Below are positions 15,337 to 54,378 of a stretch of DNA of 64,000 bases, one piece after another. The notes under the pieces are model-generated. The model was not told where the DNA came from. It did not search any database and saw only the letters and a program-made list of their open reading frames with translations. This DNA comes from Emiliania huxleyi CCMP1516. Lineage: Eukaryota. The translations under genes and the position numbers were made by a program. Every line of letters starts with the position of its first letter. The stretch's first letter is position 1. The stretch covers positions 124,001 to 188,000 of the forward strand of contig NW_005201202.1 of assembly GCF_000372725.1 (NCBI RefSeq). Direction: 5' to 3'.

Positions 15337-15765
15337 TCTGGTGTGTGCCCGGCACTCTGCCGCCGCCTAACTTTCCGTCTTCTTTCTTTTCGCTTGAACA
15401 AATCAATCTTGAAGGGATTTGAAAATCTTGGAGGGCGCCCGTACCGCCTTGCTCCGCGGACGGGCCCCTCCAAACTTCGCGTACGGATCATGTAGTCCCC
15501 ACAATCGCTGTTGTCCTGGGATCGCTTGTCATGTGAGAAAGTGCCCGGGGTTGTGCGTTTACGTGAGAAAGTGAATCCGGCATTTCTCTTTCTTGAAAAA
15601 TCGCAGATCGCACGCGTGCCAAATCGCAGGCGCAGGCAGATCGCAAATCGTAGCGCAGATCGCAGGCGTGCGCCCCATCGCTGGCACTCCACCTGCCTCT
15701 CCAACTTGCAGCGCAATCCGCCAAGAAGCGTCATTATTCACTGGCCGCTCCCGTCTCTAGGCAGG

Positions 15766-17827
15766 ATGCTCGTCGTCAGCCTCATCTCCACCGCGTACAA
15801 CGTCGGTGCTGGCCTTCGGGCTGCGCCGCACGCTTCGTCTTCTCGCGCCGCCTCCACTGCCGTCTCGATGGGAATGGACATCTCGGAGCTCATCGACGAC
15901 GCGAAGAAGTCGCGACTCGAGCACCTTGAGGCGCAGGCCATCCAGTCCCTCAAGGTTGCGGTCGATCAGTTCGAAAAGCCCGTCTTCCCGAACGCGATGA
16001 TCGTGGGCGACTGCGTCATCACGCACCTGCTGCACAAGATTGACGCGCTCAAGACGGGCAAGGTCAAGATCATGGTGGTCGACACGTTCCACCTGCTCGA
16101 CGACACGATGCCCTTCCTGGGCAAGGTGGAGGACAAGTACGGCTTTGAGGCGGAGGTGTTTGGACCGGCCGGCCTCGAGTCCAAGCGCAACCTCTCTCCC
16201 GAGAACTTTGCCGAGTACGACAAGAAGTACGGCGCCAACCTCTGGAAGGAGGACATCGAGCAGTACGACAAGGCGCGCGCTCCTCCCTCCCTCCCTCCTC
16301 CTCCCTCCGGCGCCGCCAGCTCGCGCTCTCTGCCGCTGCAGGTGTGCAAGGTGGAGCCCTTCCAGCGCGGCCTCAAGACGCTCGGCGCCAATCTGCATCG
16401 TGATCGGCCAAGACAGCGCCCTGCCCGACCTTCCCTCTGGACCTTCCTGCAGGCGCCGACATCATGATCAACGGCCGCCGCCGCGACCACGGCGCCGAGC
16501 GCGCCTACATCGACATCGCCGAGACGGCACAGCCCGCGCCCCGCTCCGCCTCCCGCGCCGCGAGCGCAGCAGCCGCCCCTCGCCAGCAGCCCCTTCTGCG
16601 CCGCCGCCGCCCCTCCCCGCCCGCCGCCGCTCTCCCGCCAGCGAAGCGCCTCCTCCTCACGCGCGCGTGAGCCTCGGGGCAGGTGCCCGTCAACGGCGGC
16701 CTCGCCAAGCTCAACCCGCTCGCGTACTGGACGCTCGAGGACTGCTTCGACTACGCGGCCGCGAACGGCACGCTCCCGCCCCCCCCTCGGCCGGGCACCC
16801 CCTCGGCCGGGCACCTCCTCGGCCCCTCGCGCCCCACTCCTCCCCGAGAGGGGCGTGCAAGCGGCTCGCTCGACCCCGCTCGCCCTCCCGCCCCACACCC
16901 TGTCCCCTGCCCCTCACCCTCGCCCCTCACCCTCGCCCTCGCCCCTCCGCCCTCACCCTCGCCCCTCTGCCCCTCCGCAGGAGTGCCGCTCCACCCGTCG
17001 GTCGAGCGCGGCTACCCCTCGCAGGGCGACGCAAAGGACACCGTCCCCGTCCCAGACCCAGACGGCCTCTCTGGCGTCCAGGGCGAGGCTGGGTCCGTCA
17101 AGTGGGTCGACGGCGTCTGGACGGGCGACAAGGCCATCTGGCTCGACTACGGCTGCGAGCGGCGCGGACGATTCGTCAACCTGCTCAACAAGGCGCGCCG
17201 CCTCGCGCCGCCTCGCGCCGCCTCGCGCCGCCTCGCACCGCCTCGCACCGCCTCGCACCGCCTCCCTCCCCCCCGCCGCCCCTCCTCGCCGGCCTCCCCG
17301 CCCCGCCTCCCTCACCGCATTCCCGCCCCCGCCCCTCCCAAGGACGGCTCCAAGAAGACGGAGTGCGGCATCCACGTCGCGGGCGCTGAGAAGACGTTTG
17401 ACCGCGACCTGTGGGACACGTCCAAGGCGGTGCAGACCCTCGCCGCGCCCTCCGACGTCGAGTCGCTGACCGCGTCGGGCAAGGAGGCTGTGGTGGTCGT
17501 GTACGCCCCGTGGTGCCAGTTCTGCCAGGCGACGAGGGGGCGCGTGACGCAAGGCTCCCGCCTGCGGCGATTGTCACGCATGCTGTGGGTGCGGAACAGG
17601 CGATGGAGGAGGAGTACGACAAGCTCGCCGACGCGTCGGGCCTGCCGGTGTACAAGTTCCGCGGCGACGAGGAGCGCGAGTTCGTCAAGGCCAACCTAAA
17701 CACGCAGTCCTTCCCGACCATCAACTACATCGACGCGTCCGGCAAGGCCATCAAGTACGAGTCCGAGGACCGCTCCGTCGGCGCGATGGCCGAGTTCGCG
17801 AAGAGCGGCGGCAAGGTCGCCGCCTGA
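15766..17827 (+). CDS. APR: Adenosine 5'-phosphosulfate reductase, APR-B type (PAPS-reductase family) with C-terminal thioredoxin domain; probably plastid-targeted; multi-exon
   Basis: VVDTFHL, CKVEPFQRGL, NGRRRDHG, KLNPLAYWT, LHPSVERGYPSQGD, ERRGRF, KTECGIH and thioredoxin YAPWCQFCQ. N-terminal signal/transit-like leader. Confidence 0.9.
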
Positions 17828-18486
17828 GCAGCAGCTGCTCGCCGCGCCCCGCCCTGCCCCGCGCGCGCGGGACAGAGCCCGAGACCCCGGTCCTCGCTGG
17901 CGCGCGCGGTGTCGGGCGCAAGAAGAAAGCGCGCTCGCGCGGACGGCGGACCACAATTATAGGCTCGGCCCGCAAACGCCTAATGGTCTCGTTGATGTTT
18001 GTACCTCGGTGTTGAACGACCTCTCCATACCCCTGTGTCGGTCTGTGTGATGATTCTGAGTAAGGTGTAAGCGAGTCTCTCAACAAATATTAGCCGGAGT
18101 GTGGAGATCTCTCTCTCACATCTCTGTACGGCCGTAAACCACGATGTCGCGCGGCGGAGTTTTTGGAGAGAGATTTGTTGTTTTGGTGGCAGACTCACTC
18201 CGCATAATCCATAAAAATCAAGAAACAAAAAATTGAAGCAGCGTGTGGTGATGGCTCAGATCGTTCGACGCACAACAGCCTGGTTGAGTCCTCACTGACA
18301 CAGTGCCGGTTGATTCTCAGTACGATGGCCGGAGCGTAGTGGCCGATGGCAACTCCCGACTCGCTCCCTCCCCACCACAGCCCATAATCCGTGTCAATAC
18401 AGGCGGCTTTGCCACTCCTCTCACTCCCCCCTACCCACCCTGGCAAGCCCCAGCGGGACGGAGAGTCCCCCCCCCCCCCAAACCGG

Positions 18487-19986
18487 TCACCGCAGCTTGT
18501 TCCCGCCGGTGAGCTTCGCCCAATAGTCATCCTTCTCCTCGGCGCTGCTCGGCGCGCCCGCAGACGCGTTCAACACCTTCATCCCCGCCATGCCGCTGCC
18601 CGCTGCGCCGCCCGCCCCGCCCCCAAGAGTTTGCCCGCCGCTCGGCGCCGCCCCAGAGAGCACCTCCCCCGACGGCCCGATCCGCACGCCCAGCCTCGTC
18701 GCCGCCGCCTCGCCGCTCCCGCCTCCGACCGCCTGCCCGCCCTGAGCCGCGGGTGACGCCTTTGCCTTGGGCGGCTTGATCGCCTTGCCGTCGAGCCGGA
18801 AGCCGGACCCGGTGAAGGAGGGGGCAGCCTCCTCCTCCTGACGACGCAGGGGGGGGGGGGGGTCCGCCCTACCCCGCGCACGCCGAGCGCCTAGGAGAGG
18901 CGAGGGGTTGGCTGCAGCGGGGACGGCCCTCGTGCATCCCGGAGGGGCGGAGGGGCGGAGGGGCGGAGGGGCGGAGGGGCGGAGGGGCGGAGGGGCGGAG
19001 GGGCGGAGGGGCGGCGGCGGGGTGCGAGAGGGAGGCTGGCGGCGGGGGAGGGGGCGTTGTCACTGCGCGCCTCGGACGAGTCGCCGTCGAGGACCGGTGC
19101 TCCCATCGGCTGCAGCACCGGCGACTTTGAGAGCGGAGAGGCGGAGGGCGGCGTCGGCGTCTTCGCGGGCCTGGGAGGCTCGACGTAGTCTGCGGGGGCC
19201 TCGAAGTCAAGCTGCATGTCCGTCTCGATGATGCACACCGCCTGCGAGGCCAGGCGGCGCACGTGGCTTGGCCCGCGCGACCCCTCTGGGGGGGGGAGGC
19301 GGGCCGTAGCCCGCCCCTCGCTGGCGAGCCTCGGCGGCGGTGCGTGCCGCCGGCTTGCGCGGTGCCCTGGGCGGGCGGATCGGGTGGGTGGTTGGGCTCC
19401 TGGGAGGCGGCTCGGGGGCCGGAGGGGAGGGCGCCTGCGGCTGGCCGGGCGCAAAGTCTCCCCCGTGTCGCTTCACCTCGACGACGCCAATGTCGTACTT
19501 CTTTTTGTTGTACAGGATGCGGAAGGTCTGCCCCTTTGTGAGCGCTGAGAAGTTGCGGAGCGACTGCTCGAGCACAACCTTTGGGTTGGAGATCTTGATG
19601 AAGTCGGTGAGCTGTGGCTGCAGCTTGACGTACGACCCCTTGTTGAGGTTGACCGACCGCAGCTGGATGATGTCGCCCTCGCTCACGCGCAGGTTCTCCA
19701 TCATCCAGTACGGCAGGTACGCCATCCCCTCCTGTGCGATGAACTCGAGCACGCCGCAGTGCAGCTTGCGCTCCATGGCGCGCGGGTTGGCGATCTGGAA
19801 CATCATTGGGTACTGGATCTCCAGCTGCGCCAGCTTCTCGAGGCACGACGGTGGCAGGATGATCTTGTCCGAGTACTCGAGCCGGCTCGCGTCGCGCTGC
19901 TGCTCCGCTGCGAGCAGCGAGACGCTGTGGCAGCGGAACGAGTCCTGGAAACCTCGGCTACCGAAGCCGCCCGGAAGGCCAAACAT
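18487..19986 (-). CDS. UFD1: Ubiquitin fusion degradation protein 1, multi-exon
   Basis: DKIILPPSCL, YPMMF, HCGVLEFIAQEG, LPYWMM, ISNPKVVLEQSLRNFSALT, IIETDMQLDFEAP and SHP-box-like FTGSGFRL. Confidence 0.95.
18940..19012. repeat. (GGAGGGGC)n octamer repeat in a UFD1 intron
   Basis: About 9 tandem copies. Confidence 0.85.
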
Positions 19987-20193
19987 CGACAAGAGCGGGG
20001 AGAAAGGGCAGAGGCGCGCGACGAGCAGGGCGCGCAGGGCGGCGTTAGCGAAAAGAATTTAGGGCGCCACGACACAGGAGCTCCCGTGGTAGTGGTAGTG
20101 AGAGACTGCTGGTGAGAAGCCGGAGGAAGGTCGCTAGTCGAGAGAGATCGCCAGTGGAATAGGGAGTCCACCGTGCTGCGAGCCTGTCGCTGT

Positions 20194-20407
20194 GTGGCGT
20201 GAATGCTTTAGCATTCTCGCCCGCTCTGCTGAGGGGAGGGGCAGGACGAGCGGTCGCCTGAGGCGCCTATCTCTATCTACCCTCTCTTGTGGTTTGCCAG
20301 CGGGGCACGTGGCCAAGGACGACGTTTCAGATCGCGCGTCCGCTTGTTTGCGCACCCGCGTGCTCGTCCACGCCACTGTCCTCCCGCCCCCTTTGATCTC
20401 TGTCGCC
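20194..20407 (+). repeat. Split direct repeat A1
   Basis: Matches 29867-30081 except one substitution and one C indel. Confidence 0.95.
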
Positions 20408-20415
20408 TGTCGCTG

Positions 20416-22881
20416 ATGTCTGCCATTGAGACGCTTGTGGAAGTGGCGCTTGCCAAGGCCACCAAGGACAGTGCCGTGCATGGCGTGGACAAGGATCAAT
20501 ACCTGTTGTGTTCCTCTGTCGTCAAAGCCGATGTGCGCAATTACCATACCGTCGAGGTGCTGCAGAAGGGACTCGACGAGAGCCAGGCCAAGGCGGCCGC
20601 TCTCGCCCTGCTATCGCAGCAATACCCTCAGCTGGCCGCAGGCGGAGGCACCGCCTCGGATGGCCCCGCCGATGCGGCAGAAAAGGTTGTCAAGACACTT
20701 GAGCGTTTGTCGTCATCACAGTTGGGTCACCTGGCCGCGGGCTGGGCCACGCAGCTCGGAGAGGCATTCACCAACGCGAGCATTCTTTCGACAGTGGAGG
20801 CCGGCTCGCTCGCGGGCCGCACCGGCAGCGGCAAGGTGCCGCTCGAGAGCGGTGAGGAGGCGCAGATGTCTTACACCGTCATCCAAGGACCATCCGAGGG
20901 CATGTACGTGCTCGAGGAGAGCGGAGCACAGGGCGAGCCACGACGCTCGGTCATCCTCAACACCACGCTGGTGACCCTCATGCTACAGCCGACGCAGGCA
21001 CACGTCGTCTCGAACGCGACGCTTGTCAAGATCAACGGCTCGAGCAGTGCTCTGGCTGTTTTCCGCAAGTTGCCCAAGTCAGGCAGCGCCGCCGAAGACC
21101 ACGTCTCGCTAGAGGAGATTCTCCAGTTAGCAGACGGTCTTCCGGCCGCGGGCGCGGTCTCGCTCTCGGGAGAGGAGCGCGTCAAGACGTTCGCCCGGGC
21201 TCTCGAGGCCAAAGTCTCCGGCGGGGAAGGCTCTAGCTGGTTGGCGGCAGTTGGGGACAAGGCGACCTACTCCGTCTTCGAGCTTCGGAGTCAGCTCGAG
21301 AGGCTTGGCCCCGACTTCACGCCGGTCGCCGCGCTGCCCGCACCCAAGTCGTGCGCGGAGTTCTTCACGCGCAACATCCGCGGGGAGAACTGGGGCGCCT
21401 TCGCCAAAAGGGTCGCCCCTCTGATTGAACCCGATGAGCAGCGGTGCAATTTCATCCGCTCCAGCGAGACGGTCCTTCGCGACGCGATCGAGCGATGGCT
21501 GGAAAGTGGGCTCGGCAGCCTCCGAGAGGCTTCCGTTGCGTCGCTCGCCCTTCGCACCGACTGGTCGGTGGACGCAGCGTGCTCGCTGATGTACCAATTT
21601 GCGATGGCCAAGGACCAGCAGCGGCTCGCCCCGCCCACTCCGCCACCGGGCGTGCCGCCTCCGATCCTTACGCAGCCGATCATCAAGATCACGACGGGCG
21701 GATCGGGTGAGGGCGGCGACGAGGCCCTCTCCGCGGCCGCTGCCGCGCAGAGCTTGACGACCGCGGAGCGCGAGTGCGTCAAGAGGCTCGCCGCATTCGC
21801 CGCCATCGAGGACAACAAAGGGGTCGATGAGATCGCCAAGTACATCGACGGCGCGTCGTCAGCAGGCGCGCCCTCCCCGCACATCATGCGCCTAGTGCAC
21901 GCGACAGACGCTAGCGTAAACAGCCTTGCGTCGTCGTACGTTGCGGACGACGGTTTTGTTGTCGACCTTCGGTCAATTCGCCGGGCCATGCTTCGCCGTC
22001 TGGAGTCAATGCACTTTGGCTTCGCGACTGACAAGCAATGGTCAGAGGAGCAGCGCCGCCAAGCAGGACGCATTCGCGTCGGGCGCTTCAGCGAAGTGGA
22101 CATCGCCTGCCTTTTGGAGGGTCAGCAAGACGGCTTCTCCAAGAAGGCGCCGCTGGCGCACATCAGGTGCCCTGTCAAGCTGCAGATGGCGCTCGGAGTC
22201 TTCTTCAGCATCTGGGCAAAGGCACACCTCACCTTCTCCAGCCATATCCTCGCCTTTGGCGCGAATGTGGCCCGCTTTCTCCACCAGACGCGAGAGGACG
22301 GAGCCTCGTGGGAGCAGCTCTCGGACTACTGGCGGAAGCTGATGCAGAAGTGCGAGCAGCCCGCGCTCCGCTTCGAGCGCAAGGAGGCACTCGCCCCACT
22401 CCAGCCGCCGCTACTCAAGTGGGCGGACGACCGCTCCGTCACACACGTTGCGGAGCTCATGGACGCCGTCAACCGGAGCGAGCGAGAGCGGCTCGCCAAG
22501 CTGCTCGAGGAGGCGCGCGCGCCGAAGGAGAGCGCAGAGCTTGCCGAGCTCCGCAAGATGGTCAAGCAGCAAGAGAGCAAGCAGCAGCAGCACGAGGAGC
22601 GCCTCGTCGCCGTCAAGAAGCGCTTGGCCGGCGGCGACGGCGGCGGTGGTGGCGGCAAGCACAGCAAGCGCGGCGGCGGCGGTGGCGGCCGCGGCGGCGG
22701 CCGCGGCGGCGGAGGCGGCGGCCGTGGCGGCGGAGGCGGCAACCCGCAGAAGCCCGGGGAGACCCAACAGGAGCTCAACGCCCGCCTCGGCCGCAAAGAC
22801 GGCAAGGACCCGTGCTGGTTCCACCACATCAAGGGCTCCTGCCGTTATGACGCCGCCGAGTGCCGCGGCCATCACGGCTGA
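20416..22881 (+). CDS. Gag-like ORF1 (~821 aa) with coiled coil, RGG tract and C-terminal CCCH-type zinc finger
   Basis: First ORF after A1. C-terminus reads KRGGGGGGRGGGRGG...CWFHHIKGSCRYDAAECRGHH*. Confidence 0.8.
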   Translation: MSAIETLVEVALAKATKDSAVHGVDKDQYLLCSSVVKADVRNYHTVEVLQKGLDESQAKAAALALLSQQYPQLAAGGGTASDGPADAAEKVVKTLERLSSSQLGHLAAGWATQLGEAFTNASILSTVEAGSLAGRTGSGKVPLESGEEAQMSYTVIQGPSEGMYVLEESGAQGEPRRSVILNTTLVTLMLQPTQAHVVSNATLVKINGSSSALAVFRKLPKSGSAAEDHVSLEEILQLADGLPAAGAVSLSGEERVKTFARALEAKVSGGEGSSWLAAVGDKATYSVFELRSQLERLGPDFTPVAALPAPKSCAEFFTRNIRGENWGAFAKRVAPLIEPDEQRCNFIRSSETVLRDAIERWLESGLGSLREASVASLALRTDWSVDAACSLMYQFAMAKDQQRLAPPTPPPGVPPPILTQPIIKITTGGSGEGGDEALSAAAAAQSLTTAERECVKRLAAFAAIEDNKGVDEIAKYIDGASSAGAPSPHIMRLVHATDASVNSLASSYVADDGFVVDLRSIRRAMLRRLESMHFGFATDKQWSEEQRRQAGRIRVGRFSEVDIACLLEGQQDGFSKKAPLAHIRCPVKLQMALGVFFSIWAKAHLTFSSHILAFGANVARFLHQTREDGASWEQLSDYWRKLMQKCEQPALRFERKEALAPLQPPLLKWADDRSVTHVAELMDAVNRSERERLAKLLEEARAPKESAELAELRKMVKQQESKQQQHEERLVAVKKRLAGGDGGGGGGKHSKRGGGGGGRGGGRGGGGGGRGGGGGNPQKPGETQQELNARLGRKDGKDPCWFHHIKGSCRYDAAECRGHHG

Positions 22882-25800
22882 TGGCCAGCGGCAGCCTCCG
22901 ACCCGCCCGGCGGCCCATCGACGCCGAGTGTGGTGCCCGAGGCAACCGTGCCAGTGTCGTGCGTGACTGATGTGAGTGATTCGGCTGTGTGTGCGCATGG
23001 GTGTGATACGCAGCATGACAGCGGAGGGGAGGGCGGCGGGAGCGATGTGGAGGTGGGTTCTAGTGCGCCCCCGCCGCAATCGCCGCATCCCCGAGACGGA
23101 CGGAAGTCCGTCGATCGAGATTTGGCAGCAGCTGCTCTGGGCAGCTGCGACACTAGCCCGAGCGCGCCGCGCGGGCTCCTCCTGCACCTGTTCGCGGGCG
23201 GGCCGCGGGATGGGAGCTTCGCGCACTTTGCCACCGCGCTCGGCTTTGATGTGATTGAGAGAGACATCATCCTCGACCCCGGCCATAACCTGGTCGACGA
23301 TGGCGTCTTCGCCGAGGTGATGGAGCTCATTCAGAGCGGCGCGGTCAAGGCGGTGCTTTTGGGCACGCCGTGCGGCACCTTCTCCGTCCTGCGCATCCCG
23401 CAGCAGGATGGTCGAGAGGGCCCGCCGCAGCTGCGCGACCGGCTACACCCCATGGGCATGCCCGGCGTGCCGCGCCAAAACCTCAACGAGCTGGCGACCG
23501 CAAACGTTCTCGTGCGTAGAACCGTGATCATCGCTCAGGCCATCGCCGACGCGGGCGGCGTCTTCATCATCGAGAACCCGCCCGACAGAGGCGATGGCCC
23601 GCTCTACCAGGCCAAGTTTGCATCGCACGCGCCTCTGTGGCTGGTGCCAGAGGTCATCGAGCTCGCCGACCGCACTGGAGCGATCAAGATCACCTTCCCC
23701 CAGTGCGCCCTCGGCTCGGACTTTCAGAAGTGGACGACGCTGCTGGTCTCGCCGCAGCTAGTCCCGCAGCTCGTGGACCTCTCGAGGCTCGCGTGCCAGC
23801 ACCCCGACGGCCACCGTGACGTCGCTGTCGGCGCACGTGCAGCGCGGGCTGCTGCGTACCCTCCGTTGATGAACCGCAGACTGGCCGAGGCGATCTCGGA
23901 CTGCCTCACGTCGCTCGGCGGCGGTGCTCCGAAGGAGAGCAGCCATCTCGCCGGCGACGCTGCGGGCGAGGCTAGCGAGCCGGCGGGCGAGGATCTCGAC
24001 GCCCCCGCCGCCGGCCGCGGCTCGCCAGGCATCGTCGCAGATGCTGTCGATTGCCGTCGTAACGATCTGCGTGGCAGCAAAAGGTCGCGCGACGGGATGC
24101 GCGACGCGCAGCTGTCTCAGCGCGCGCGACAGCGACTGAAGCGGCGGCAGGCCGCATCCAGTGGTGAGGCAGGCGACGGGCGAGGTCCTGGGTGCAGAAC
24201 CCGCCCCGACCCTGCCGATCCACCGGAGCGCGACACTGCTGCCGACACCGAGCTACTGCCAGAGGCCGCGCAGGCGCCCGCCATGGCGGTCGGGTCTGCC
24301 ATGCCCCATGCGGGGCCGCTCGGCGAGGTGGCGGTCGGCCGGCGGTCGGACGAGGGGTCGGTCGACATCACACGCCTCGGCGTGCTCGGCAATCCCTTTC
24401 CGATCCGCCCTCTCGTCGCGAGGGGCATGGATGACGAGGTGGCGCGCCGCGCAGTGTGCGACGCGCACAGGCTCTACCTGCGGCGCGTCATGAACAGGCA
24501 GGAGGCCGATCTCGCAGAGATAGCAGGCACAGTCGGCGCGCCAGCCGACGGTCAGCCTCTCGTCTATCAACAGCCTCCCGCACCGGAGGCAGTGCGAGGC
24601 GAAATCGACCGTCTTGCATTCGTCGTTGCCCGAGGTGGTCGCCTCCTCCTCGGCTGCGTGTGCGCACCCGAGCAGTGCCACGGCGACGCCGTGAAGGAGG
24701 CTATCCTCACGGCGGCGATGGAGAAGCGGGTCTGCGCCGAGCCGCGCGGCCCCCCCGCCTCCGGCTCGCTGCGGAGGCTGGTTCCCGAGCAGGAGGACGT
24801 TCTCCGAGGTAAGCTGCTGCCCGTCGCCAACGAGCCGCCGTCGACCGACCCCGTCGAGCCGCCCGCCGAAGATCGGACTCCGCCGGCCCCGCTGCGCACC
24901 GCGGAGCTCATCCCCGGGCCAGTCATACGGCGGCTGCGGCGGTTCCGCCGGGACGTACGCACGTGCCTGCGGCTGGCGGCCAAAGGCAAGTGGAAGCGAG
25001 CGAGGGGCGCTCGACCCGAGGCCGTCTACCTCAGCGAGGAGGAGGCGATCCTTCCGGCGGGCCGAGGTTGGACCTGGCGCCACGATCCCGACGCCGACCT
25101 GTGGCACCCGATCACGCCCTCCGCGTGGCCCTCCTCCGAGCCCGTCGGCGAGCTCGACCGCGCCGCCGTCGCCGAGCTCGCCACCGATTACCCGGACCAG
25201 GAGATCGTCTCGTACATGTTGCACGGATACCCGGGCCCGCACATTGCGCCGAGATGCCTGCTCGGCCAGCCGCACGTCGGCGCGCTCAAGGAGCACGCCG
25301 GCTTTGCCAAATGCGCGGCCAAGGACCGCGCCAAGGGCTGGGTCGAGGCTGGCAGAGAGCTTCCTCCCGTCTGGCCTTACTGCGCCGACCCCTTCAACGT
25401 TGTCGAGCGTTATGGCAAGTACCGCATGACCATCGACAAGACGATGACGCTAGTCCCCGGTGTTACCTCGTACAATGACTCGGTCGACCTCGACTCGATC
25501 GACCCAGTCGAGTACGCCACCATCCGGGACCTCGCCGAGGCGTCCGCGATACTCGCGACCGCCGGAGTGCCCATCGCGCTCTGGGGCTTCGACCTGGAGG
25601 CGTACTTCCGTAAAACCGGCAAGCAGCGGCGCGACGTCTGGATGTCCGGCTTCGTCCACGAGGACGGTTTCGGACTCGACGAGCGGATCCAGTTCGGGCA
25701 GCGCGAGGCTCCAGTCCTCATGTCCCGACAGAGCTGCTATCTCGTCTGGGCGATACGTCGCGAGATCGAGCGGCTCGAAGCCAAGTACCCGCCGAGGGAT

Positions 25801-26937
25801 CCCGTGGTCAGGCGCTGGCTCGAGGCGCGGCGTCGGCTCGCTGCCGGCGCCGCGGCGTACCGCGGGGCCGCTCTCTCCTTCATCCTCATGTACGTCGACG
25901 ACCTGGGCGGCGTCTGCGTTGATGATGACGTCGAGGTTGACGGAGTCGTGTGGCGGCGCAGCCAGCTTTACTATGTGGCCGCCAAGGCTGTGGTCGAGCA
26001 GCTCGGCCACTCCATGGCCGACGACAAGCTCAGCCCACCTTCGCGCGAGGGCATGGAGTTTCTCGGCGCGTACCTGCGGATCCTAGATCAGCGCGTCCTG
26101 CCCGCCGAGGGCAAGTGCGAGAGGTATGCCGCGGCGACTCGCGCCGTCCTCGATGTGGAGCCGTCCGGAGGCGTCGTGGTCGTGCCGAAGGAGGCGCTGA
26201 ACTCGCTCACGCACAAGCTGCTGCACGCGGCCTCGTTCATCCCGCTCGGTCGGCAGCATCTGTATCACGTGCGTCGCGCCCTCAAGGCGGAGAACAGGCT
26301 CGCCGGCGCGAGGGCGACGCTCGGCAGGGCCGCGCTCGCCGAGCTGCGGTGGCAGCTCGCTCAGCTGGAGCTCCAGGAGCCCGTCGGTGTACCGTTTGCC
26401 ACGCGGAGCCGCTTCCCGGCGGCGGGATCAGCCGGAGTGCTGACGCCCTACTCGGACGCCTCGAAGGAGGAGGACTCCTCCGAGAGCGGCTTCGGCGCGT
26501 GGTGCGTCATCGACGGCACTTTCGTGTACGTCGAGGGTCGCTGGACGCCGGAAGAGTGCAAGCAGCACTCGATCAACGTCCTCGAGCTCGCGGCGATGAA
26601 CATCGGCACGTTCGCCTTCCTCGACTACGCCGAGGGGCGCGGCTTTGACGTGCAATACGTGCACGAGTTCGTCGACAACGAAGCCGCCGAGTTTGTCGCT
26701 GACCGCGGCAAGCCGCGGGCGCCCGCGATGGAGGACCTGCTCGGGAGACGTTACGAAGCCTTTTGGGAGCGTGGCATCTTCGCCGCCGCCTCGCGCATCG
26801 CCTCCGTCGATAACGACATCGCTGATGGCCTGTCGAGGGGCGGCGAGAGGCTCGAGGACGCGCTGCGGATCGCCGCCGCGTCGGGCATGCCGACTCTCAA
26901 GCTCGAGCCGCAGCCGCGGTGGCGACAGCTGTCGTGA
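22882..26937 (+). CDS. Pol ORF2: C5 DNA-methyltransferase-like + DUF4326-like + reverse transcriptase + RNase H
   Basis: MTase-like HLFAGG, GTPCGTFS, IENP (23176-23890). DUF4326-like VDITR..LGNPF...LGCVCAPEQCHGD (24361-24700). RT FDLEAYFR, QFG, YVDD (25891). RNase H YSDAS, INVLELAA, VDN, NDIADGLSR. The frame is open from the gag stop codon. Confidence 0.88.
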   Translation, partial: WPAAASDPPGGPSTPSVVPEATVPVSCVTDVSDSAVCAHGCDTQHDSGGEGGGSDVEVGSSAPPPQSPHPRDGRKSVDRDLAAAALGSCDTSPSAPRGLLLHLFAGGPRDGSFAHFATALGFDVIERDIILDPGHNLVDDGVFAEVMELIQSGAVKAVLLGTPCGTFSVLRIPQQDGREGPPQLRDRLHPMGMPGVPRQNLNELATANVLVRRTVIIAQAIADAGGVFIIENPPDRGDGPLYQAKFASHAPLWLVPEVIELADRTGAIKITFPQCALGSDFQKWTTLLVSPQLVPQLVDLSRLACQHPDGHRDVAVGARAARAAAYPPLMNRRLAEAISDCLTSLGGGAPKESSHLAGDAAGEASEPAGEDLDAPAAGRGSPGIVADAVDCRRNDLRGSKRSRDGMRDAQLSQRARQRLKRRQAASSGEAGDGRGPGCRTRPDPADPPERDTAADTELLPEAAQAPAMAVGSAMPHAGPLGEVAVGRRSDEGSVDITRLGVLGNPFPIRPLVARGMDDEVARRAVCDAHRLYLRRVMNRQEADLAEIAGTVGAPADGQPLVYQQPPAPEAVRGEIDRLAFVVARGGRLLLGCVCAPEQCHGDAVKEAILTAAMEKRVCAEPRGPPASGSLRRLVPEQEDVLRGKLLPVANEPPSTDPVEPPAEDRTPPAPLRTAELIPGPVIRRLRRFRRDVRTCLRLAAKGKWKRARGARPEAVYLSEEEAILPAGRGWTWRHDPDADLWHPITPSAWPSSEPVGELDRAAVAELATDYPDQEIVSYMLHGYPGPHIAPRCLLGQPHVGALKEHAGFAKCAAKDRAKGWVEAGRELPPVWPYCADPFNVVERYGKYRMTIDKTMTLVPGVTSYNDSVDLDSIDPVEYATIRDLAEASAILATAGVPIALWGFDLEAYFRKTGKQRRDVWMSGFVHEDGFGLDERIQFGQREAPVLMSRQSCYLVWAIRREIERLEAKYPPRDPVVRRWLEARRRLAAGAAAYRGAALSFILMYVDDLGGVCVDDDVEVDGVVWRRSQLYYVAAKAVVEQLGHSMADDKLSPPSREGMEFLGAYLRILDQRVLPAEGKCERYAAATRAVLDVEPSGGVVVVPKEALNSLTHKLLHAASFIPLGRQHLYHVRRALKAENRLAGARATLGRAALAELRWQLAQLELQEPVGVPFATRSRFPAAGSAGVLTPYSDASKEEDSSESGFGAWCVIDGTFVYVEGRWTPEECKQHSINVLELAAMNIGTFAFLDYAEGRGFDVQYVHEFVDNEAAEFVADRGKPRAPAMEDLLGRRYEAFWERGIFAAASRIASVDNDIADGLSRGGERLEDALRIAAASGMPTLKLEPQPRWRQLS

Positions 26938-27139
26938 GTCCGTCCCGGGCCGTGTATGGCGCCGCGGGCGGCGGGTGGCTGGTTGCCCCCAGAAACCAGC
27001 TCGGGTACCCGTCTCGCCGACGTCGGGCGGGACTGGTACGGCAGTGGAGGCAGGAAGCCGCCCTGCCCGCGCCGACCGGACGGAGTAGTCCGTCGAGCGC
27101 GCCGTGGGGCCTGGAGATGCCCCGGAGCCAAGGAGCGTG

Positions 27140-27587
27140 CTGTCAGGGTCCCTTCAGGGAGCGACTGCACCGTGCTGTCAGGGTCCCCTCCGGGGAGCGA
27201 CGGTTCGAAGGGCGCTGTCAGGGTCCCCCTCGGGGAGCGACGGCGCCCGACCGTCAGGGTCCCTACGGGGAGCGACGGCTGAAGCGCAAGGGGTACTGTC
27301 AGGGTCCCTTTAGGGAGCGACGGTGCCCTACTGTCAGGGTCCCCTCCGGGGAGCGACGGTTCGAAGGGCGCTGTCAGGGTCCCCCTCGGGGAGCGACGGC
27401 GCCCGACCGTCAGGGTCCCTACGGGGAGCGACGGCTGAAGCGCAAGGGTACTGTCAGGGTCCCTTCAGGGAGCGACGGTGCCCTACTGTCAGGGTCCCTA
27501 CGGGGAGCGACGTTCGAAGGGCGCTGTCAGGGTCCCCCTCGGGGAGCGACGGCGCCCGACTGTCAGGGTCCCTACGGGGAGCGACGG
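27140..27587 (+). repeat. Array of 12 hairpin-forming repeats (consensus CYGTC-AGGG-TCCC-loop-GGGA-GC-GACGG), arranged as three 4-unit blocks
   Basis: Blocks start at 27140, 27296 and 27451. Linkers of 7-17 bp recur with period 4. Confidence 0.95.
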
Positions 27588-27861
27588 TACGCAGCCGCGG
27601 CAAAGGGCCTGCGCTGCAGTGGTCGCCACTTCAAATGGACTGGCGGGCAATGGGTGGATGACGAACGGCGGAACAATCCGTGGCATGGTTGCTCGGCCGG
27701 GAGCGTCGCTCTGATGAGCAGCGCCTCCCTCTCCCCGTCCTAGTCCCACCACACGCCTCGTGCGCATTGCCACCGGCGACTCGCCGGTCATCCGCATCTC
27801 TCTGGCCTTCTCAGGTGAGGAAAGGCCGCCTCAGCCGGATCCCGGGTACGGCTACGCCGCG

Positions 27862-29580
27862 ATGCCGGGCTGCGAGGCGAGCCGAGAGAGCACCACCCCG
27901 GTACCTGATCCATCGAGCCAAGCGCCCGCCCTCGCCCCGCACTGGCCGGGGAAGCGGAGTGCGCCGGAGCCGGATCCGCCGCGTTGGCGCGTCGACGAAG
28001 CGACGAGGGCAGCCGGGGCTGGCCGCGTCGCCGATCCAGAGAGCGCCCGGCGCGGAGGCAGCGCCGGAGGTGCCGGGCAGGGGGCCGTCTGTGACCCGTT
28101 CGTGGGGGGCGCGCCGCTCACTGCCGTCGCCGTCGAACGACCCGGCGACGCAGACGCGCCCAAGGCCGACGCTGCCCCGATGGGGAGCGCGTACCGCGAG
28201 CTCGAGACAGCCTCGGAACGGACAAGAGCCGATGGCGCCGTGCTCGCGGATCCGAAGCTTCGCCGGATGAGCGTTCGTTTCGCAGAGGCGATGGCGGTGC
28301 CGCCTGGAGACTTCGTGGAGGAGGAGGGCGGCCAGCGCGTCTTCGTGAAAGACGAAATCGCGCCCAGCCGCGCGTTCGCGGCGCTCTCGATCAAGGATCC
28401 AGCCGCGCGCGACGCGATCGGCTCGCAGTACCTCGACGACGAGGGTGAGCCGTTCAAGTACTCGTTCGACGCCTCCCTCGAGCCCAGCTCGCACCCGCTG
28501 GACGCGGAGAAGCAGCTGGAGCTACGAGGGCTCGACAAGGGGATCGAGCAGGCGCTCGAGGCCGCCACCCGCGATATGAAGGGCGGCGCAACATCCACCG
28601 GCGTCAGGGCGTGGCACGCCTTCTGCCGCCACTTTGGCCTCGCGCCGTACCGCCCGTTAGACACTATCGCCACTCTTCCGCGGAAGCTCGCCGAGGAGCG
28701 GCTCGTCATGCGCTTTGTCATGTGGCTGGTCGAGTCGAGGGACATTCTCGCCTCGACGGCAGCCAATTACGTAGGCTCGGTGCAAGGATGGCACCTCCGC
28801 CGAACGGGAGTCAAGTTGGCAGCCGGGATGAGGCTGGCTCGCGTGGCCGAGATGGTCAAGGGCCTGCGGCGGCTGCGAGGCGACCCCGGCCGACGAGTGC
28901 GCCGAGGCGTGTCGCCCGACGTGCTGCGCGCGCAAATGGACGCGATGCTCGATCCGAGGACGGTCGATGGCGCCAACATGCGCGCCGCCCTCTCGCTGGG
29001 CTTCCAGGGGCTGCTGCGGGGGGCCGAGTTCACCGTCAGAGGCCGCCAGTGGGACCCCGCCAGGGACATGTCGCGAGCTGACGTCGCTGAGCTCTCCGCG
29101 GAGAGAGCGGTCGTCATGATGCTGCCGTGCAAGAACATGCAGCATCTCAACGGCAAGACCGTCCCGCTCGTGGTCGGTGGCGGCGGGCTGTTCATCGACG
29201 CCCCAGCTGAGCTGCGCAACCTCCTCACCGTCGACCCGGTGTACGGCGACCGCGCCACGCGCACGCCGCTGTTCCGCCACGCCGATGGCTCCGCCATCAC
29301 CGAGGCGCAGGTGCGGGACATGATCAAGCGGCTGATGCAGCGCGCCGGTGCGTCGCCCGCCGAGTTCGGCGCCCACTCGCTGCGCATTGGTGGCGCGACG
29401 GCGCTCTTCAAAGCGGGCGCCTCCCAGATCGACATCATGACGATGGGGCGGTGGTCGTCCGACTGCTACCGCCTGTACGTCCGCGCCTGCTTCGGTCACG
29501 CCGTCGAGTGGTCGAGGAAGGCCGGGTCCACTAGCGTCGACGACGTCGCCGAGGAGTACAAGGAGGTGGACTGTTACTGA
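27862..29580 (+). CDS. Tyrosine recombinase ORF3 (start uncertain; frame open from at least 27760)
   Basis: FQGLLRGAEF, HSLRIGGAT and MGRWSSDCYRLYVR supply the R-HxxR-W-Y catalytic set typical of DIRS YR. Confidence 0.93.
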   Translation: MPGCEASRESTTPVPDPSSQAPALAPHWPGKRSAPEPDPPRWRVDEATRAAGAGRVADPESARRGGSAGGAGQGAVCDPFVGGAPLTAVAVERPGDADAPKADAAPMGSAYRELETASERTRADGAVLADPKLRRMSVRFAEAMAVPPGDFVEEEGGQRVFVKDEIAPSRAFAALSIKDPAARDAIGSQYLDDEGEPFKYSFDASLEPSSHPLDAEKQLELRGLDKGIEQALEAATRDMKGGATSTGVRAWHAFCRHFGLAPYRPLDTIATLPRKLAEERLVMRFVMWLVESRDILASTAANYVGSVQGWHLRRTGVKLAAGMRLARVAEMVKGLRRLRGDPGRRVRRGVSPDVLRAQMDAMLDPRTVDGANMRAALSLGFQGLLRGAEFTVRGRQWDPARDMSRADVAELSAERAVVMMLPCKNMQHLNGKTVPLVVGGGGLFIDAPAELRNLLTVDPVYGDRATRTPLFRHADGSAITEAQVRDMIKRLMQRAGASPAEFGAHSLRIGGATALFKAGASQIDIMTMGRWSSDCYRLYVRACFGHAVEWSRKAGSTSVDDVAEEYKEVDCY

Positions 29581-29669
29581 TGGAGGTGCCTGACACGCGA
29601 TCGCGTGGGGGGGGACTGCGCCCTGGCCGTTCCGGGCTCACGCGGTGGTCACACCATCCCGGAGAGCGA

Positions 29670-29866
29670 GGGGTAGGGAGCAGCACCTCCCCCCTCACCA
29701 CGCATGTCAGGCGCGGCCGCCGCCGAGCGCGGCGGCCGCCCAGGCCTCGTGGCCGATTTGTTTGTCTCGCAAGAGGAGCGCATTTCTCAATTCAACTACC
29801 TCCTCTTCTTCGAGACCCTCTCGCGCTATGAAGGCGGGCGAGAGGAGGGAGGGGCCCCTTGCAGAG
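29670..29866 (+). repeat. Split direct repeat B1
   Basis: 197 bp, no difference seen from 30238-30434. Confidence 0.95.
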
Positions 29867-30081
29867 GTGGCGTGAATGCTTTAGCATTCTCGCCCGCTCT
29901 GCTGAGGGGAGGGGCAGGACGAGCGGTCGCCTGAGGCGCCTATCTCTATCCACCCTCTCTTGTGGTTTGCCAGCGGGGCACGTGGCCAAGGACGACGTTT
30001 CAGATCGCGCGTCCGCTTGTTTGCGCACCCGCGTGCTCGTCCACGCCACTGTCCTCCCGCCCCCCTTTGATCTCTGTCGCC
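29867..30081 (+). repeat. Split direct repeat A2
   Basis: Copy of A1, directly abutting B1. Confidence 0.95.
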
Positions 30082-30237
30082 CCACCCGCCTCTCCCGAGC
30101 GACTGAGATTCGAGGTTGGTCTGTTCTGTTATCTGTTGGAGTCTTGCGAGTGTGTCCGTCGTCGTACCCTCCGCCGTCCATGCATGGTGTGTGTGGAGTG
30201 CTGTCTGTGGTGTTTTGTGGGGTGTGTGGGGGGGGAG

Positions 30238-30434
30238 GGGGTAGGGAGCAGCACCTCCCCCCTCACCACGCATGTCAGGCGCGGCCGCCGCCGAGCGCGG
30301 CGGCCGCCCAGGCCTCGTGGCCGATTTGTTTGTCTCGCAAGAGGAGCGCATTTCTCAATTCAACTACCTCCTCTTCTTCGAGACCCTCTCGCGCTATGAA
30401 GGCGGGCGAGAGGAGGGAGGGGCCCCTTGCAGAG
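30238..30434 (+). repeat. Split direct repeat B2
   Basis: Copy of B1 at the element's right end. Confidence 0.95.
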
Positions 30435-30468
30435 CGGGGACCCAATAACGATCGATTTGTTTGACAGC

Positions 30469-33400
30469 ATGGCGGCTGATCGACCAGGAATGAGAGACGA
30501 CGACCCGGAGTGCGCCTTCGCCGTTCGCATCGTCAAGCTGGAGCCGGCGCGCACGCCTCCGGTCCAAGGCCTCGACCCGACTCACAGCCCGCTGACCGGC
30601 AGGAAGATCCGGTGCGGGCTGTAGTCGTACCTGCGCTTCCGCTGATAGCACACGCTGCCGGCCGCGAATCGCCGCGACGCAGCATGCGACTTAGCGTGCC
30701 GCCTCCGGCCGCAGGCACGCGCCGGTCATGCGCGTCTTCGGTTCCACGCCGCGCGGGCAGACGGCGTGCGTGCACATGCACGAGGCGTTCCCGCACCTGC
30801 TCGTGCCCGGCCCTCACTGGCTGGCGTCGGCTCCGGACGAGCGGGTGGCGGCGTTTCGCCGGAGGGTGGCGGACAGCCTGGACGCGGCGCTGGCGCACCG
30901 CGAGGACGAGCGCGCCGCCGAGCGAGCCGCGCGGGCACAAGCCGCTCAGACGGGCGGCGGCGGCGGCGGCGGAGGCGGCGGAGGCGGAGGCGGCGGGCGG
31001 GAGAGGGCGGCACGGACGAGGGCGGTAGCAGCAGCGCCCGCCATCGGCTGTAGGCGCGCCGGCGTTGGCGGAGCGTGAGCGGGCGAGGGTGTTTGACATC
31101 GCAGTAGTGTCGAGGACCCCGTTCTACGGCTACCACGCCGAGGCGAGATCTCGCCGAGATACAGCCGAGATGTGGCCTCACGGAGGCCGTTCTACGCGCG
31201 CGCCGCCTTCTCGCGGCTCAGTGGAGGCGGATCAATCTCGGCTCATCTCGGCTCATCTCGACGCCCTTCGGCAGGCGCGCCCTTTTTTGCGTGTCGTGCT
31301 GGTCGAGACGCAAGCCAGGGGCGTGGACCAGGTGGGGAGGGGGGTGGAGGGGGGGCCGGACCGGCGTCGCCCCGGCAGAATGACGAATCTCTCCACCCCT
31401 CGGCAACTAGGTCGTCGAGGCGGCCGACCTCTTTCTCCTCGGCCTCGTGCCGCCGCTGCAGCGGGCGCAGCCGCCGCCGCATCGGTCACCGACCGCCGCG
31501 ATTCCTTCCCAGGCCACCCACCTGTCCACACACCCGCAGGCGCAGCCGTACGAGTCGCACGTCGGGTACGCGCTCAAGTTCAAGGCCGGCCTGGGGCCCT
31601 CGCTGCGGGGAGGGCCCCGTGGATAGCCGCCTCTTCCACCCCCCCCCCCCCCTCTCTCCCGTGAGCAGGTCGACCTCAACCTGCACGGCATGGACTTGCT
31701 CCGGCTGGGTGGCGCCTCTCTGCCCGCCCTGAGGCCGGGCCTGCCTCGGGCGACGGCGGCGCGCCCTCTCGCCTCTCCACTCGCCTCGCAGACTGGCGGC
31801 GGCGAGGGGAGCGGCGGCAGCGGCGGCGGCGGCGGAGGCGGCAGAGGCGGAGGCGGCGGAGGGGGAGGCGGTGGGAGCGTTGGAGGCGGGAGCGAGAGGC
31901 GGCGGAGGGAGACGGGGCTTCGAAGCGTGTGGACGGAGGGGGCGACGCACGGGGCAGAGGAGTCTCGGGTGCCCCTCGGCCAGATCTCGGGGAGGCGTGT
32001 GCTGTAGGAGGGGGAGACGCATGGCTTGTGCGTGCGGTACCTCGCGCCGCGGCTGACCTCTTGCGAGCTCGAGCTAGACGCGGCACCGGCGCAGGTCCTG
32101 CTTCGAGAGGTGCTGCGCGAGTCGCTCTCGCCCTCTTCACAGCCACAGCTGTGAGCAGGTGCTCAACGCGCGAGACGTGCTGCACGAGCCCCTCTCGTCC
32201 GCCCGCGCCGACGTGCAGATGGTGCCGCGCCCCTCCCCGACTTGTGCACTTGTCCGCCGGTGAGCTGCCAAGCCTGTCAAGCGTGGGCCCTCAGGTCTCC
32301 TCCCTCTCCAATTTGTGGAGGGACGAGCGCGACAGGTCGGGCAGCGCCACGACTCTGCACACCTCGAGGCCCGCCTCTCCACACACCTCCGCCCCTGCGA
32401 GCAGGCGGGCAGCACTCGGGCTTGCCCCGCTGCGCGGCCCCAACGGGTCCCCTCGAGGGCGGCACGCTGGCCGGCGTCCCTCCGTTGTCAACGAGCACGG
32501 ATGCACTCTTAGGACTCCCGAGGGAGGCACGCCGGCGGCCGAGGCGTCGCTGCGATGTGCTCTTCCTCCCGCACGCAGCGGTGCGGTGCGGGACCAGTTC
32601 GAGGCGGACTAGCCTGTAGTTCATTGCTAGTTGTAGTAGCAACAGCGGTGCGATGCGGGTTCGATCGAGCGCCACCTCTTCACACCTGCCTCTTCACACC
32701 TACCTCTTCACACTTGCCTCTTCACACCTGCCCGTTTCCTTCACACCTACCTGTTCACACTTGCCTGCAGGTGCTCGAGCAGATCCTCGCCGCCACCGAG
32801 GCGGACGAGGAGGAGGGAGCGGCGGGCAACGAGGACGGCGGCGGAGGGTCCGGGGACGGCTAGCGGGCCCCGGAGGGCTCGGCTCTTCTTCCCCGTGTCA
32901 CGCTGCAATGAAGTGCTGTGTGTTGGTGATCAGGCTGGGCCATGGACGGCCCCCTCTCCCCCGTCGCGTCTGCCGATGCGGCGGGAGGCCCGACCGAGCC
33001 GCCGGGAGGGCTCACCCAGCTCATCGACGCCGCGGACACGGCAGAGCTGCAGGCGAAGGTGCAGCAGGCAGGCCGCACTGATCGGTCATCTGGAGCCATC
33101 GATGCGTTGCTCATCGACAGGCGTCGCAGCTGTCCCAGCAGTCGGAGCCGCCGCAGCTGTCGCAGCCGCCGCAAGACGGCACCGCCGCGCTTCTGCGGTG
33201 TCTGGCTGCCTCTCGGCCAGGACTCGGCTAATCCGCCTCCGCGGCTGAGTCAGGCCTCGACGCGCTCTTGCGGGAGATCAACCAGGAGATGGCGGGGCGC
33301 GGAGGAGGAGGCAGGCGGGGAGGCGGCTTCTCTTCACACCGCCCGCCGCCGTGAACAGGAGAACGAGGAGGCGTACGAGGCGGGTGGCCTCTCCTCCCAG

Positions 33401-52843: not shown

Positions 52844-53685
52844 GTCGGAAGGTGAGACGTTTGAGAGCGCGTGGGTTTTTGTGATTGTCGGTGCGTTTTG
52901 GTTTTTTTTTAGGAACAAGCAAAGGAGGCGACGCACGCCACCCCCCGGGCCCGCCGACAGAATCCCACACAGTTCACAGAACCTTGGAGACGACACACAT
53001 AGGTGGTAGACAGCGCCCCAACGCAAAAAGGCAAAATTCACCAGTGTGGGATTTCGCGCAAACCGCAATTTCGCTTGACTCTGAAAAGCTCGCATGTACC
53101 TCCTGCGAGCGCTGTGATCGCCGCAGACTGGCTCCGACTTGACGGGCGCATGGAGACGTGATGCCTCCATGCGCCCCGTCGCGTCGAAATCGACATGTGA
53201 GTCGATCTTTGGCCCGCCAGAGGTACATGCGGCGTTTTGGGCGACAACAGCGCTGCGACCGCGAAGTGGCGGTGGACATGCTCCCATGTTGCCGACGCGG
53301 CGCCGGAGTGGCCGGCGCTGCTCGCCGCGACCACGACGGTGCAGAGGAGCCGAGTGCAGTGACGATCCAGAGGCTACCTGGGTCACCAAGTGGTGGACCT
53401 TGCCCACTCTGAGCAGGGCTGTGCTTTGGTGTGGGGTTGTGTTTGAGCATGTGTGAAGTGGGAGTGCGTGCCGGCGGTGTCTGTGGGTGAAATAGGCGTG
53501 TGTGAGGCTGCAGAGCCGGGGTATGCGAGCCAGAGTGGGCTTCATCACCCAAAATAAGGACCGTCTGGGACAGCTCAGACTTGATACTGATGGGCCTTGG
53601 CCAGGAGAGCGGCAGGGAAGGCGAGGTGGTGAGATGGGAAGCCGCTTTGTCGGCACCTGGACGTGTCGCGATGACCTGTGCCAAA

Positions 53686-54378
53686 AAGCGTTGTTTGCGG
53701 CTATTGCTCAAGACTTCGGGAGAGAAGGCCTACATATTATGACTTCATCCATGCGCCTGGTGCATGAGAGCTGTAGGTCGGGACATATCACGGTCGGTGG
53801 CGCCGATAATGACCTCCGAAAAGCCCTCGCAATCGCTCCAGATGGGTCCACCGGGGACGATCTCGAGCCCTCTCCGTGGCATCACGAGCCGGTATGAGCC
53901 TGAAGACCCAATATTCGTGCGGTCTGGCACTCCACAGTTCAGACCTGCTCCTGGTAGGCCTGGGCCAGGAGAGCGACAGAGAAGGCGAGGTGGTAAGCTG
54001 AGAGCAGGAAATAGCGCTTCGTGGCACCTGCTTCGCGACAAGGTCACACGCGGACTCTCCAGCCTCTCAGCTCACTAGCTCGCCTTCTCTGTCGCTCTCC
54101 TGGCCCAGGCCCATCAGTAGCAGGCCCGAGCTGTCCCGAACCGCACTTATCTCGGGTCTTCAAGCTCACACCGGCGCGTGATGCCACGGAGAGGGCTCGA
54201 GATTGTTCCCAGTGGACCCCATCCGAGCCGATTGCGAGGGCATTTCGGAGGTCATTATCGGCGCCACCGACTGTGAAATGTCCCGACCCACAGCTCTTCT
54301 GCACCAGGCGCATGGATGAAGTCATAATATGTAGGCCTTCTCTCCCGAAGTCTTGAGCAATAGCCGCAAAAGGCGCTT
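53686..54378. repeat. Long imperfect inverted repeat (fold-back), ~320-bp arms, ~60-bp loop
   Basis: 53694-53764 is the exact reverse complement of 54300-54370 (71 bp), and similarity continues inward. Confidence 0.92.

Follow-up and report, generated by a model that had tools for sequence, protein, structure and literature searches.

The 64,000-nt stretch of Emiliania huxleyi CCMP1516 DNA analysed here (contig NW_005201202.1, positions 124,001 to 188,000 of the forward strand; hereafter the window) contains a 10.2 kb retrotransposon (20194-30434) whose Pol protein carries, ahead of the reverse transcriptase (RT), a domain with a predicted C5 cytosine-methyltransferase fold. The element is an intact, multi-copy tyrosine-recombinase (YR) retrotransposon. 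With a probability of about one half, we propose that the domain uses a rebuilt active site to methylate cytosines of the nucleic acid that the element itself has just reverse-transcribed. Our analysis establishes how the element is built, the predicted fold of the domain, the invariance of a Cys and a Glu, purifying selection, a long shared inheritance of domain and RT, and the occurrence of the domain's family in three retrotransposon types.

All six motifs that an initial annotation of the window had read in C5 order lie where it placed them within the single Pol frame (LHLFAGG 23182, ERDI 23257, GTPCGTFS 23362, IENP 23569, QKWT 23725 and AAAYP 23848). An AlphaFold model of the domain, built with 27 sequences, reached a predicted local distance difference test score (pLDDT) of 92.8 and a predicted template modelling score of 0.91, and all PDB matches listed by Foldseek were C5 methyltransferases. 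Among 48,161 representative chains searched, the top 11 were C5 enzymes (Z 11.7-10.1), ahead of the short-chain dehydrogenases as the best unrelated Rossmann fold (Z <=9.9). M.HhaI (Z 12.2, root-mean-square deviation 3.5, 196 aligned residues) and DNMT3A/B (Z 12.1-12.0) were tied at identities of 9-13%, those to the DNMT3 structures being 9-11%. The tied fold matches also included a carboxymethyltransferase (Z 10.7) and Dnmt2 (Z 10.1), and the best viral fold matches were compact methylases of ~210 residues. That is, the model predicts a C5 cytosine-methyltransferase fold, as the initial annotation had supposed from the motifs.

At the sequence level the domain escapes the usual profiles. Searches against the PDB gave nothing significant (best relevant match Dnmt2, E 1.7), PF00145 matched 0/16, 0/29, 0/20 and 0/27 family proteins in four partly overlapping sets, while a phage methylase used as control scored 3.4e-6, and an NCBIfam scan of 32 rows found no methyltransferase family. 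An atlas comparison, which we treat as a lead only, gave 0.96 for unnamed clusters and 0.87-0.88 for named PF00145 clusters. One of these 32 rows, P0288, proved to lie outside the family (14% identity). A chance reading of a GC-rich frame is excluded by the fold, by conservation and by the ratio of non-synonymous to synonymous substitution rates (dN/dS).

Conservation was scored over the filled alignment rows of 193 family members; since these were picked by profile similarity, the figures are favoured by the choice. The catalytic Cys (23371) was present in 191/191 rows, the Pro of motif IV in 184/191 and the Glu of motif VI (23572) in 192/192, so the PC and ENP motifs are conserved among homologues as the initial annotation required. 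The Asp of motif II was kept in 173/181 rows, and Arg185 (23434), 21 residues after the catalytic Cys, in 191/192. In motif I, Phe (162/173) and the first Gly (169/170) are kept, followed by a longer, variable loop. Motif VIII reads KxT (23728-23736), with Lys in 187/190 and Thr in 183/189 rows. The stretch from motif VIII to motif X (median ~45 residues) contains a near-invariant set of Cys, Cys, His/Cys and His, including Cys275 (188/191), Cys305 (188/189) and His311 (187/188), and this Cys/His segment replaces the target-recognition domain; the cluster of the window copy lies at 23704, 23794, 23800 and 23812. Comparison of the window with its relative L002 (simple counting, dS near 1.2) gave dN/dS values of 0.17 for the domain, 0.19 for RT and 0.16 for RNase H, against 0.34 for the linker, 0.57 for the N-terminus and 0.52 for the accessory domain DUF4326, which indicates that the domain is under purifying selection.

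Several observations weigh against methylation by this domain, the first of them in the active site. Motif VIII is KxT in the columns where phage controls show RxR; Arg occupied the first RxR position in 0/190 rows and the second in <=1/189, in a register taken from the sequence alignment and the predicted strand rather than from superposed coordinates. Motif I retains its second Gly in just 27/171 rows, and motif X departs from the canonical form. The domain thus keeps the C5 fold, Cys and Glu but fails one defining catalytic motif, the motif VIII arginines. Both of these are described as essential in Dnmt3a, and R165A cuts M.HhaI catalysis 1e5-fold (PMC4802922). An enzyme of C5 fold with another substrate or product is an alternative that we consider unlikely: it might act on RNA or single-stranded cDNA, transfer another group, or use the Cys adduct for deaminating or trapping cytosine. 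In its favour, Cys and Glu are invariant in a domain that has rebuilt both arginines, its motif I loop, its motif X and its target-recognition domain, and a carboxymethyltransferase and Dnmt2 are among the tied fold matches. On the other side, KxT also occurs in phage phrog_2882 proteins, which belong to DNA viruses and are DNA methyltransferases by annotation only.

Further counter-evidence concerns substrate, expression, translation and precedent. The fusion to RT suggests the element's own cDNA as substrate; no footprint of self-methylation was found. For CG, the observed/expected ratio stood at 1.17 within the element, compared with 1.11 for its flanks. Of 52 transitions, taken from the displayed rows with 112 and 7 further rows not shown, 17 fell in CpG where 20.1 were expected; no context was significant (CpC, 19 versus 13 expected, p 0.08). 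The CG-depletion test is weak because active SymbioDIRS-Dnmt3 elements are likewise described as free of CG depletion (PMC5890265). For the alternative of another chemistry the same counts cut both ways, since a missing 5-methylcytosine decay footprint favours it, whereas the lack of a C-to-T excess in any context opposes it. Host methylation is given as ~16% of CpG and 5-6% of CHG, with >80% of CpG sites unmethylated (PMC13334186), which gives little reason to imitate a methylated genome; the suggestion that the element mimics host CG methylation found no support. The circular cDNA that the initial annotation took as substrate is an assumption; the cDNA of DIRS-1 is reported to be mostly linear and single-stranded (PMC7192593). 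Poly(A) reads from ~3% of four runs (13 million records) included none on the domain and none across the Gag-Pol junction; low-depth contigs from RNA-labelled runs span much of the element and may be DNA. The first in-frame ATG of Pol in the window copy (23320) lies inside the domain, with none before motif I, while L002 has an ATG immediately before motif I. Finally, the DNMTs of SymbioLINE and KnitGypsy are reported to be inactive in yeast (PMC5890265).

An improbable alternative, favoured by the missing footprint, is that methylation happens in trans, on host chromatin, at the target site, on competing elements or on viral DNA, and not on the element's own cDNA. Its co-travel with DUF4326, which has been proposed to process ADP-ribose phosphates in virus-host conflicts (PMC9503650), would fit such a role, but the RT fusion in all visible contexts fits action in the particle, and the element was silent in the sampled poly(A) reads. 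We give similarly little credence to a non-catalytic nucleic-acid- or SAM (S-adenosylmethionine)-binding module or decoy, a role that has been put forward for the adenine-methyltransferase domain of DIRS1. The loss of RxR points that way, and the DIRS1 domains have been called likely inactive (PMC4738411), but retention of Cys in 191/191 and Glu in 192/192 rows across three element types and deep branches argues against it.

How methylation of its own cDNA could proceed may be outlined as follows. Since the window copy has no in-frame ATG ahead of motif I, synthesis of Pol would require read-through of the Gag TGA, splicing or a start codon other than ATG. The domain, carried along with RT, would bind SAM; the Cys would attack C6, and the Glu would serve as in other C5 enzymes. 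Conservation suggests that the invariant Lys of KxT and the Arg behind motif IV substitute for the lost arginines, and that the Cys/Cys/His/His cluster is a putative metal site replacing the target-recognition domain, which could leave the enzyme with low sequence specificity. The mark might then protect the cDNA against host nucleases, deaminases or silencing until YR-mediated integration.

The domain belongs to a large family. A 16-sequence profile retrieved 13,463 clusters (50% identity) at E <=0.001, 6,257 at 1e-10 and 545 at 1e-30, of which the best 150 of the 13,463 were inspected. Among these, 56 members had at least 1000 residues; 44 carried the RT type of the window element after the domain, 42 of them with RNase H as well, and the other 12 were long terminal repeat (LTR) Pol proteins, 11 copia-type and one gypsy-type. 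The domain shares one frame with RT wherever the context is visible, and YR frames adjoin the relatives in L002-L006. Of the working set of 193, 19 were copia-type, and in six of these a single frame encodes integrase, then the domain, then RT. Searching from a distant member revealed Pol proteins of ~1050 residues with the domain ahead of RT, two clusters of which are named Symbiodinium; no YR gene was seen for these proteins. Most family members come from marine eukaryotes. Three further observations may be added. P0200, the single gypsy-type case, bears the domain N-terminally, together with RT, RNase H and integrase, and its domain clusters with the copia-borne ones. In P0254, the beginning of a UvrD/Rep-like helicase comes after the family domain, and the sequence branches beside the window's clade. 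The Symbiodinium-like P0313-P0325 have EQP in place of ENP and an insertion of at least ~14 residues in the Cys/His segment.

A FastTree phylogeny of 198 rows (185 domains of at least 200 residues plus 13 phage sequences; 8 shorter domains were dropped) recovered one clade of Symbiodinium-like sequences (98), one that joins copia with gypsy (99) and a marine one of YR type that includes the window (90). With IQ-TREE and 46 hand-picked rows, the YR-type clade (22 rows) received 96/99, the Symbiodinium-like clade 100/97, and the separation of all 38 retroelement rows from the phages 96/90; copia rows were not grouped with support. Since both trees have two phage outgroups on long branches and were built without Dnmt3, Dcm or giant-virus rows, we claim neither a donor nor an order of events. 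In 70 YR-type Pol proteins, from which a length filter excluded the Symbiodinium rows, 17 of the 24 supported domain splits were shared with the RT tree and one conflicted, and domain and RT distances were correlated (Mantel rho 0.45, 0/999 permutations). This agreement, taken with the other carriers, argues that the domain has long been carried with this RT and has also moved between element classes. The initial annotation had considered a further lineage or an independent capture. By the tests run, the domain is indeed distinct from the published Dnmt3 captures, but the family's presence in copia, gypsy and Symbiodinium Pol proteins makes it an old mobile module and not a private capture. 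That the domain represents a divergent branch of the SymbioDIRS-Dnmt3 or SymbioLINE-Dnmt families already published, whose sequences are absent from the tree, is very improbable: the A-coding-B-A-B repeats with a DNMT in Pol, the tie of DNMT3 with M.HhaI in the fold search and the relatives in Symbiodinium speak for it, but the published elements were found by PF00145, which matches none of the family proteins tested, identity to DNMT3 structures is low, and RxR is absent.

The element has the repeat order A1...B1-A2-B2, with a 156-nt spacer between A2 and B2, and three consecutive frames (Table 1). The ORF1 product closes with a Gly-rich tract and a tail resembling a Cys/His knuckle; a Pfam scan gave no family above cut-off, and we regard the protein as a putative Gag from its position. 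In ORF2 the order is methyltransferase-fold domain, DUF4326, RT and RNase H, consistent with the initial annotation, which had the C5-like domain precede RT and RNase H end the frame. Because Pfam detects neither RT nor RNase H (DUF4326 was the sole family found on ORF2), their identification needed fold comparison: the model of 25192-26934, the last 581 residues, had a pLDDT of 91.0 and, at E 1e-16, matched the RTs of cauliflower mosaic virus (CaMV), Ty3 and retroviruses. ORF3 has the R, HxxR and Y catalytic motifs at 29011, 29374 and 29446, and its counterparts in L002 and L003 are 67% identical. The Gag TGA is followed at once by in-frame Pol both in the window (22879-22884) and in L002 (7548-7553), two elements that are ~70% alike, which may reflect stop read-through. 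In L003, L005 and L006, the YR frame likewise continues in frame after the Pol stop. No tandem array was found between Pol and YR at the equivalent place in the nearest relatives, L002 and L003.

Table 1. Features of the Emiliania huxleyi retrotransposon (positions in the window)
Feature	Position	Strand	Remarks
Split direct repeat A1, element 5' end	20194..20407	+	99% identity with A2 over 215 nt
ORF1, putative Gag, TGA stop	20416..22881	+	882-codon open frame, first Met codon 62 (ATG 20416)
ORF2, Pol, 1351 codons	22882..26937	+	in frame, immediately after Gag stop
Predicted C5-cytosine-methyltransferase-fold domain	23158..23910	+	model, fold searches, conservation, dN/dS 0.17
DUF4326, accessory	24334..24699	+	PF14216 E 1.4e-8, above cut-off; dN/dS 0.52
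Reverse transcriptase core (approximate limits)	25369..26106	+	YVDD 25891; fold match to CaMV/Ty3/retroviral RT
RNase H, final Pol domain (approximate limits)	26419..26901	+	YSDAS/DAS motif 26449, secondary structure, invariant acidic residues
Tandem array, 35-nt unit repeated ~12 times, with higher periods of 75 and 156	27124..27588	+	
ORF3, tyrosine recombinase	27718..29580	+	PF00589 E 1.3e-5, just below cut-off
Split direct repeat B1	29670..29866	+	100% identity with B2
Split direct repeat A2	29867..30081	+	99% identity with A1
Split direct repeat B2, element 3' end	30238..30434	+	100% identity with B1; different sequence adjoins this end in another run

The element is not of the strict DIRS1 type, with which the initial annotation had compared it. 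DIRS1 elements have inverted terminal repeats with an internal complementary region and an adenine methyltransferase after RNase H; the window element has split direct repeats, no inverted repeat pairs of at least 25 nt within 19500-30600, and DUF4326 as an additional domain between the C5-like domain and RT. Split direct repeats, a Gag assigned by position only, RT/RNase H and YR frames place it among the YR retrotransposons with split direct repeats. Support for multiple copies comes from gene models and contig depths: the ORF2 protein cluster includes two Emiliania huxleyi CCMP1516 gene models, and contig depth was ~470-650 on the element versus 77 on the right flank in one run (X15) and 77-156 versus 33 in another (X17). 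About 80% of the element's sampled words were present in three other runs from one organism, and the contigs of these runs, to which the depths belong, had differing sequences at the element's ends. Depths and alternative end sequences fit several copies and polymorphic insertion, although depth is not a copy number. L002 and L003 have the order Pol-YR-Gag, which might suggest a free circle; we rejected this reading, since assembly can collapse A...B-A-B repeats into a cycle of this kind. The left flank (20100-20193) is itself repetitive, with very high depth and strong expression, and in 1676 poly(A) reads it runs on into a different sequence; on this side the element lies next to or inside another repeat.

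DUF4326 lies between the domain and RT also in P0022, P0201 and P0257, whereas it follows RNase H in P0036 and precedes the domain in P0272, which argues for a mobile accessory. Judged by title, none of nine papers that list DUF4326 deals with retrotransposons. Elsewhere in the window, intron-containing host genes occupy 15496-17830 (+) and 18800-20060 (-); from their translations, the first presumably encodes a PAPS/APS reductase-like and the second a UFD1-like protein. Nested long inverted repeats at 53526-54381, with arms of <=175 nt at 89%, possibly represent a foldback element or one resembling miniature inverted-repeat transposable elements.

In published surveys, which count retrotransposon DNMTs via PF00145, Symbiodinium copia and many DIRS elements come out as lacking such domains. 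With a family of this size, unseen by Pfam, in the Pol proteins of YR, copia and gypsy elements, self-modification would be common in algal retrotransposons. Tentatively, and with the odds against it, the family may even form a class of cytosine-modifying enzyme that has no name yet, with a centre of lysine, relocated arginine and metal knuckle, traded among YR, copia and gypsy elements of haptophytes, dinoflagellates and other plankton and possibly marking single-stranded cDNA or RNA, or making a product other than 5-methylcytosine. In that case its >13,000 clusters at 50% identity would outnumber all described retrotransposon DNMTs, and many elements counted as DNMT-less would become carriers. 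If the domain is active, the C5 reaction can proceed without the motif VIII arginines. With an intact copy, a cultured alga and published methylomes, the use of its own methyltransferase by a retrotransposon is directly testable.

Among named sequences, the nearest kin of the domain appear to be compact phage methylases, in a scan that left prokaryote genomes outside. The nearest named family is phrog_757 (14/32 aligned rows matched, best 2.5e-10), and profile comparison with the compact phage methylases gave E 1.1e-5 and 2.1e-7 over part of the domain. Proteins of phrog_757, phrog_2882 (P087 gp15, MAV1 MarMP) and phrog_363 (Sheen gp59) resemble it in size (~210-250 aa), in PC and ENP/ENV motifs and in the short region after motif VIII; unlike the domain, they are stand-alone genes of DNA viruses without the Cys/His cluster, and they sit on long branches. 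Both active and inactive clades are reported among phage C5 methyltransferases (PMC8256090). None of 119 pattern matches in IMG/VR was confirmed as a close viral relative, and GenBank phages gave weak partial matches at best (7e-3) or none. As an element, ours resembles Ngaro, VIPER and PAT in its A1...B1 A2 B2 repeats, Gag, RT/RNase H and YR. Ngaro and VIPER, however, have no methyltransferase, and PAT/DIRS1 carry one of adenine type after RNase H, whereas the Emiliania element has a C5 fold ahead of RT and nothing after RNase H (for host DNMTs and definitions of YR subgroups, see PMC9998398, PMC4738411, PMC3266345 and PMC6681497).

Cytosine-methyltransferase domains carried by retrotransposons are described for SymbioLINE-Dnmt, KnitGypsy-Dnmt3 and EpiLTR, which differ from ours in element class, host and DNMT clade (orphan, Dnmt3 and DNMT4-sister, respectively). 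Orphan DNMTs were added by Sarre 2025 (PMC12344493), where Dnmt3 carriers are worded as copia and DIRS, and DNMT4-sister EpiLTRs by a 2026 preprint (bioRxiv 10.64898/2026.05.21.726589). SymbioLINE-Dnmt has its DNMT in ORF1 of a long interspersed nuclear element and shows CG depletion; the window element is a YR element with an LTR-type RT fold and a CG ratio of 1.17. Modules that cross retrotransposon classes, as the Emiliania domain family does, are likewise reported for DAM domains (PMC5890265, bioRxiv 10.64898/2026.05.21.726589). Outside subscription journals and Repbase, a literature search found no paper on the domain family or a haptophyte carrier; two earlier reports of RT-linked DNMTs that are cited in PMC5890265 lie outside that search, and one may cover Emiliania.

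The closest parallel is SymbioDIRS-Dnmt3 (de Mendoza et al. 2018, PMC5890265). In the parts of that paper available to us, DNMT elements were found via PF00145, Symbiodinium copia is said to be without any DNMT, and Emiliania appears solely in a count table. Both systems are YR retrotransposons with A-coding-B-A-B repeats, a C5-fold domain in Pol together with RT and RNase H, and a separate YR frame, and both combine purifying selection and congruent RT and DNMT trees with a lack of CG depletion. The Emiliania element differs in its haptophyte host, in being missed by PF00145, and in KxT, the Cys/His segment, the AAYP end and the extra DUF4326. SymbioDIRS-Dnmt3 domains methylate CG in yeast, a precedent for the putative activity of the Emiliania domain. 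Compared with the published SymbioDIRS elements by their description, it thus appears to work like SymbioDIRS-Dnmt3 in design yet, by the tests run, is not a member of Dnmt3.

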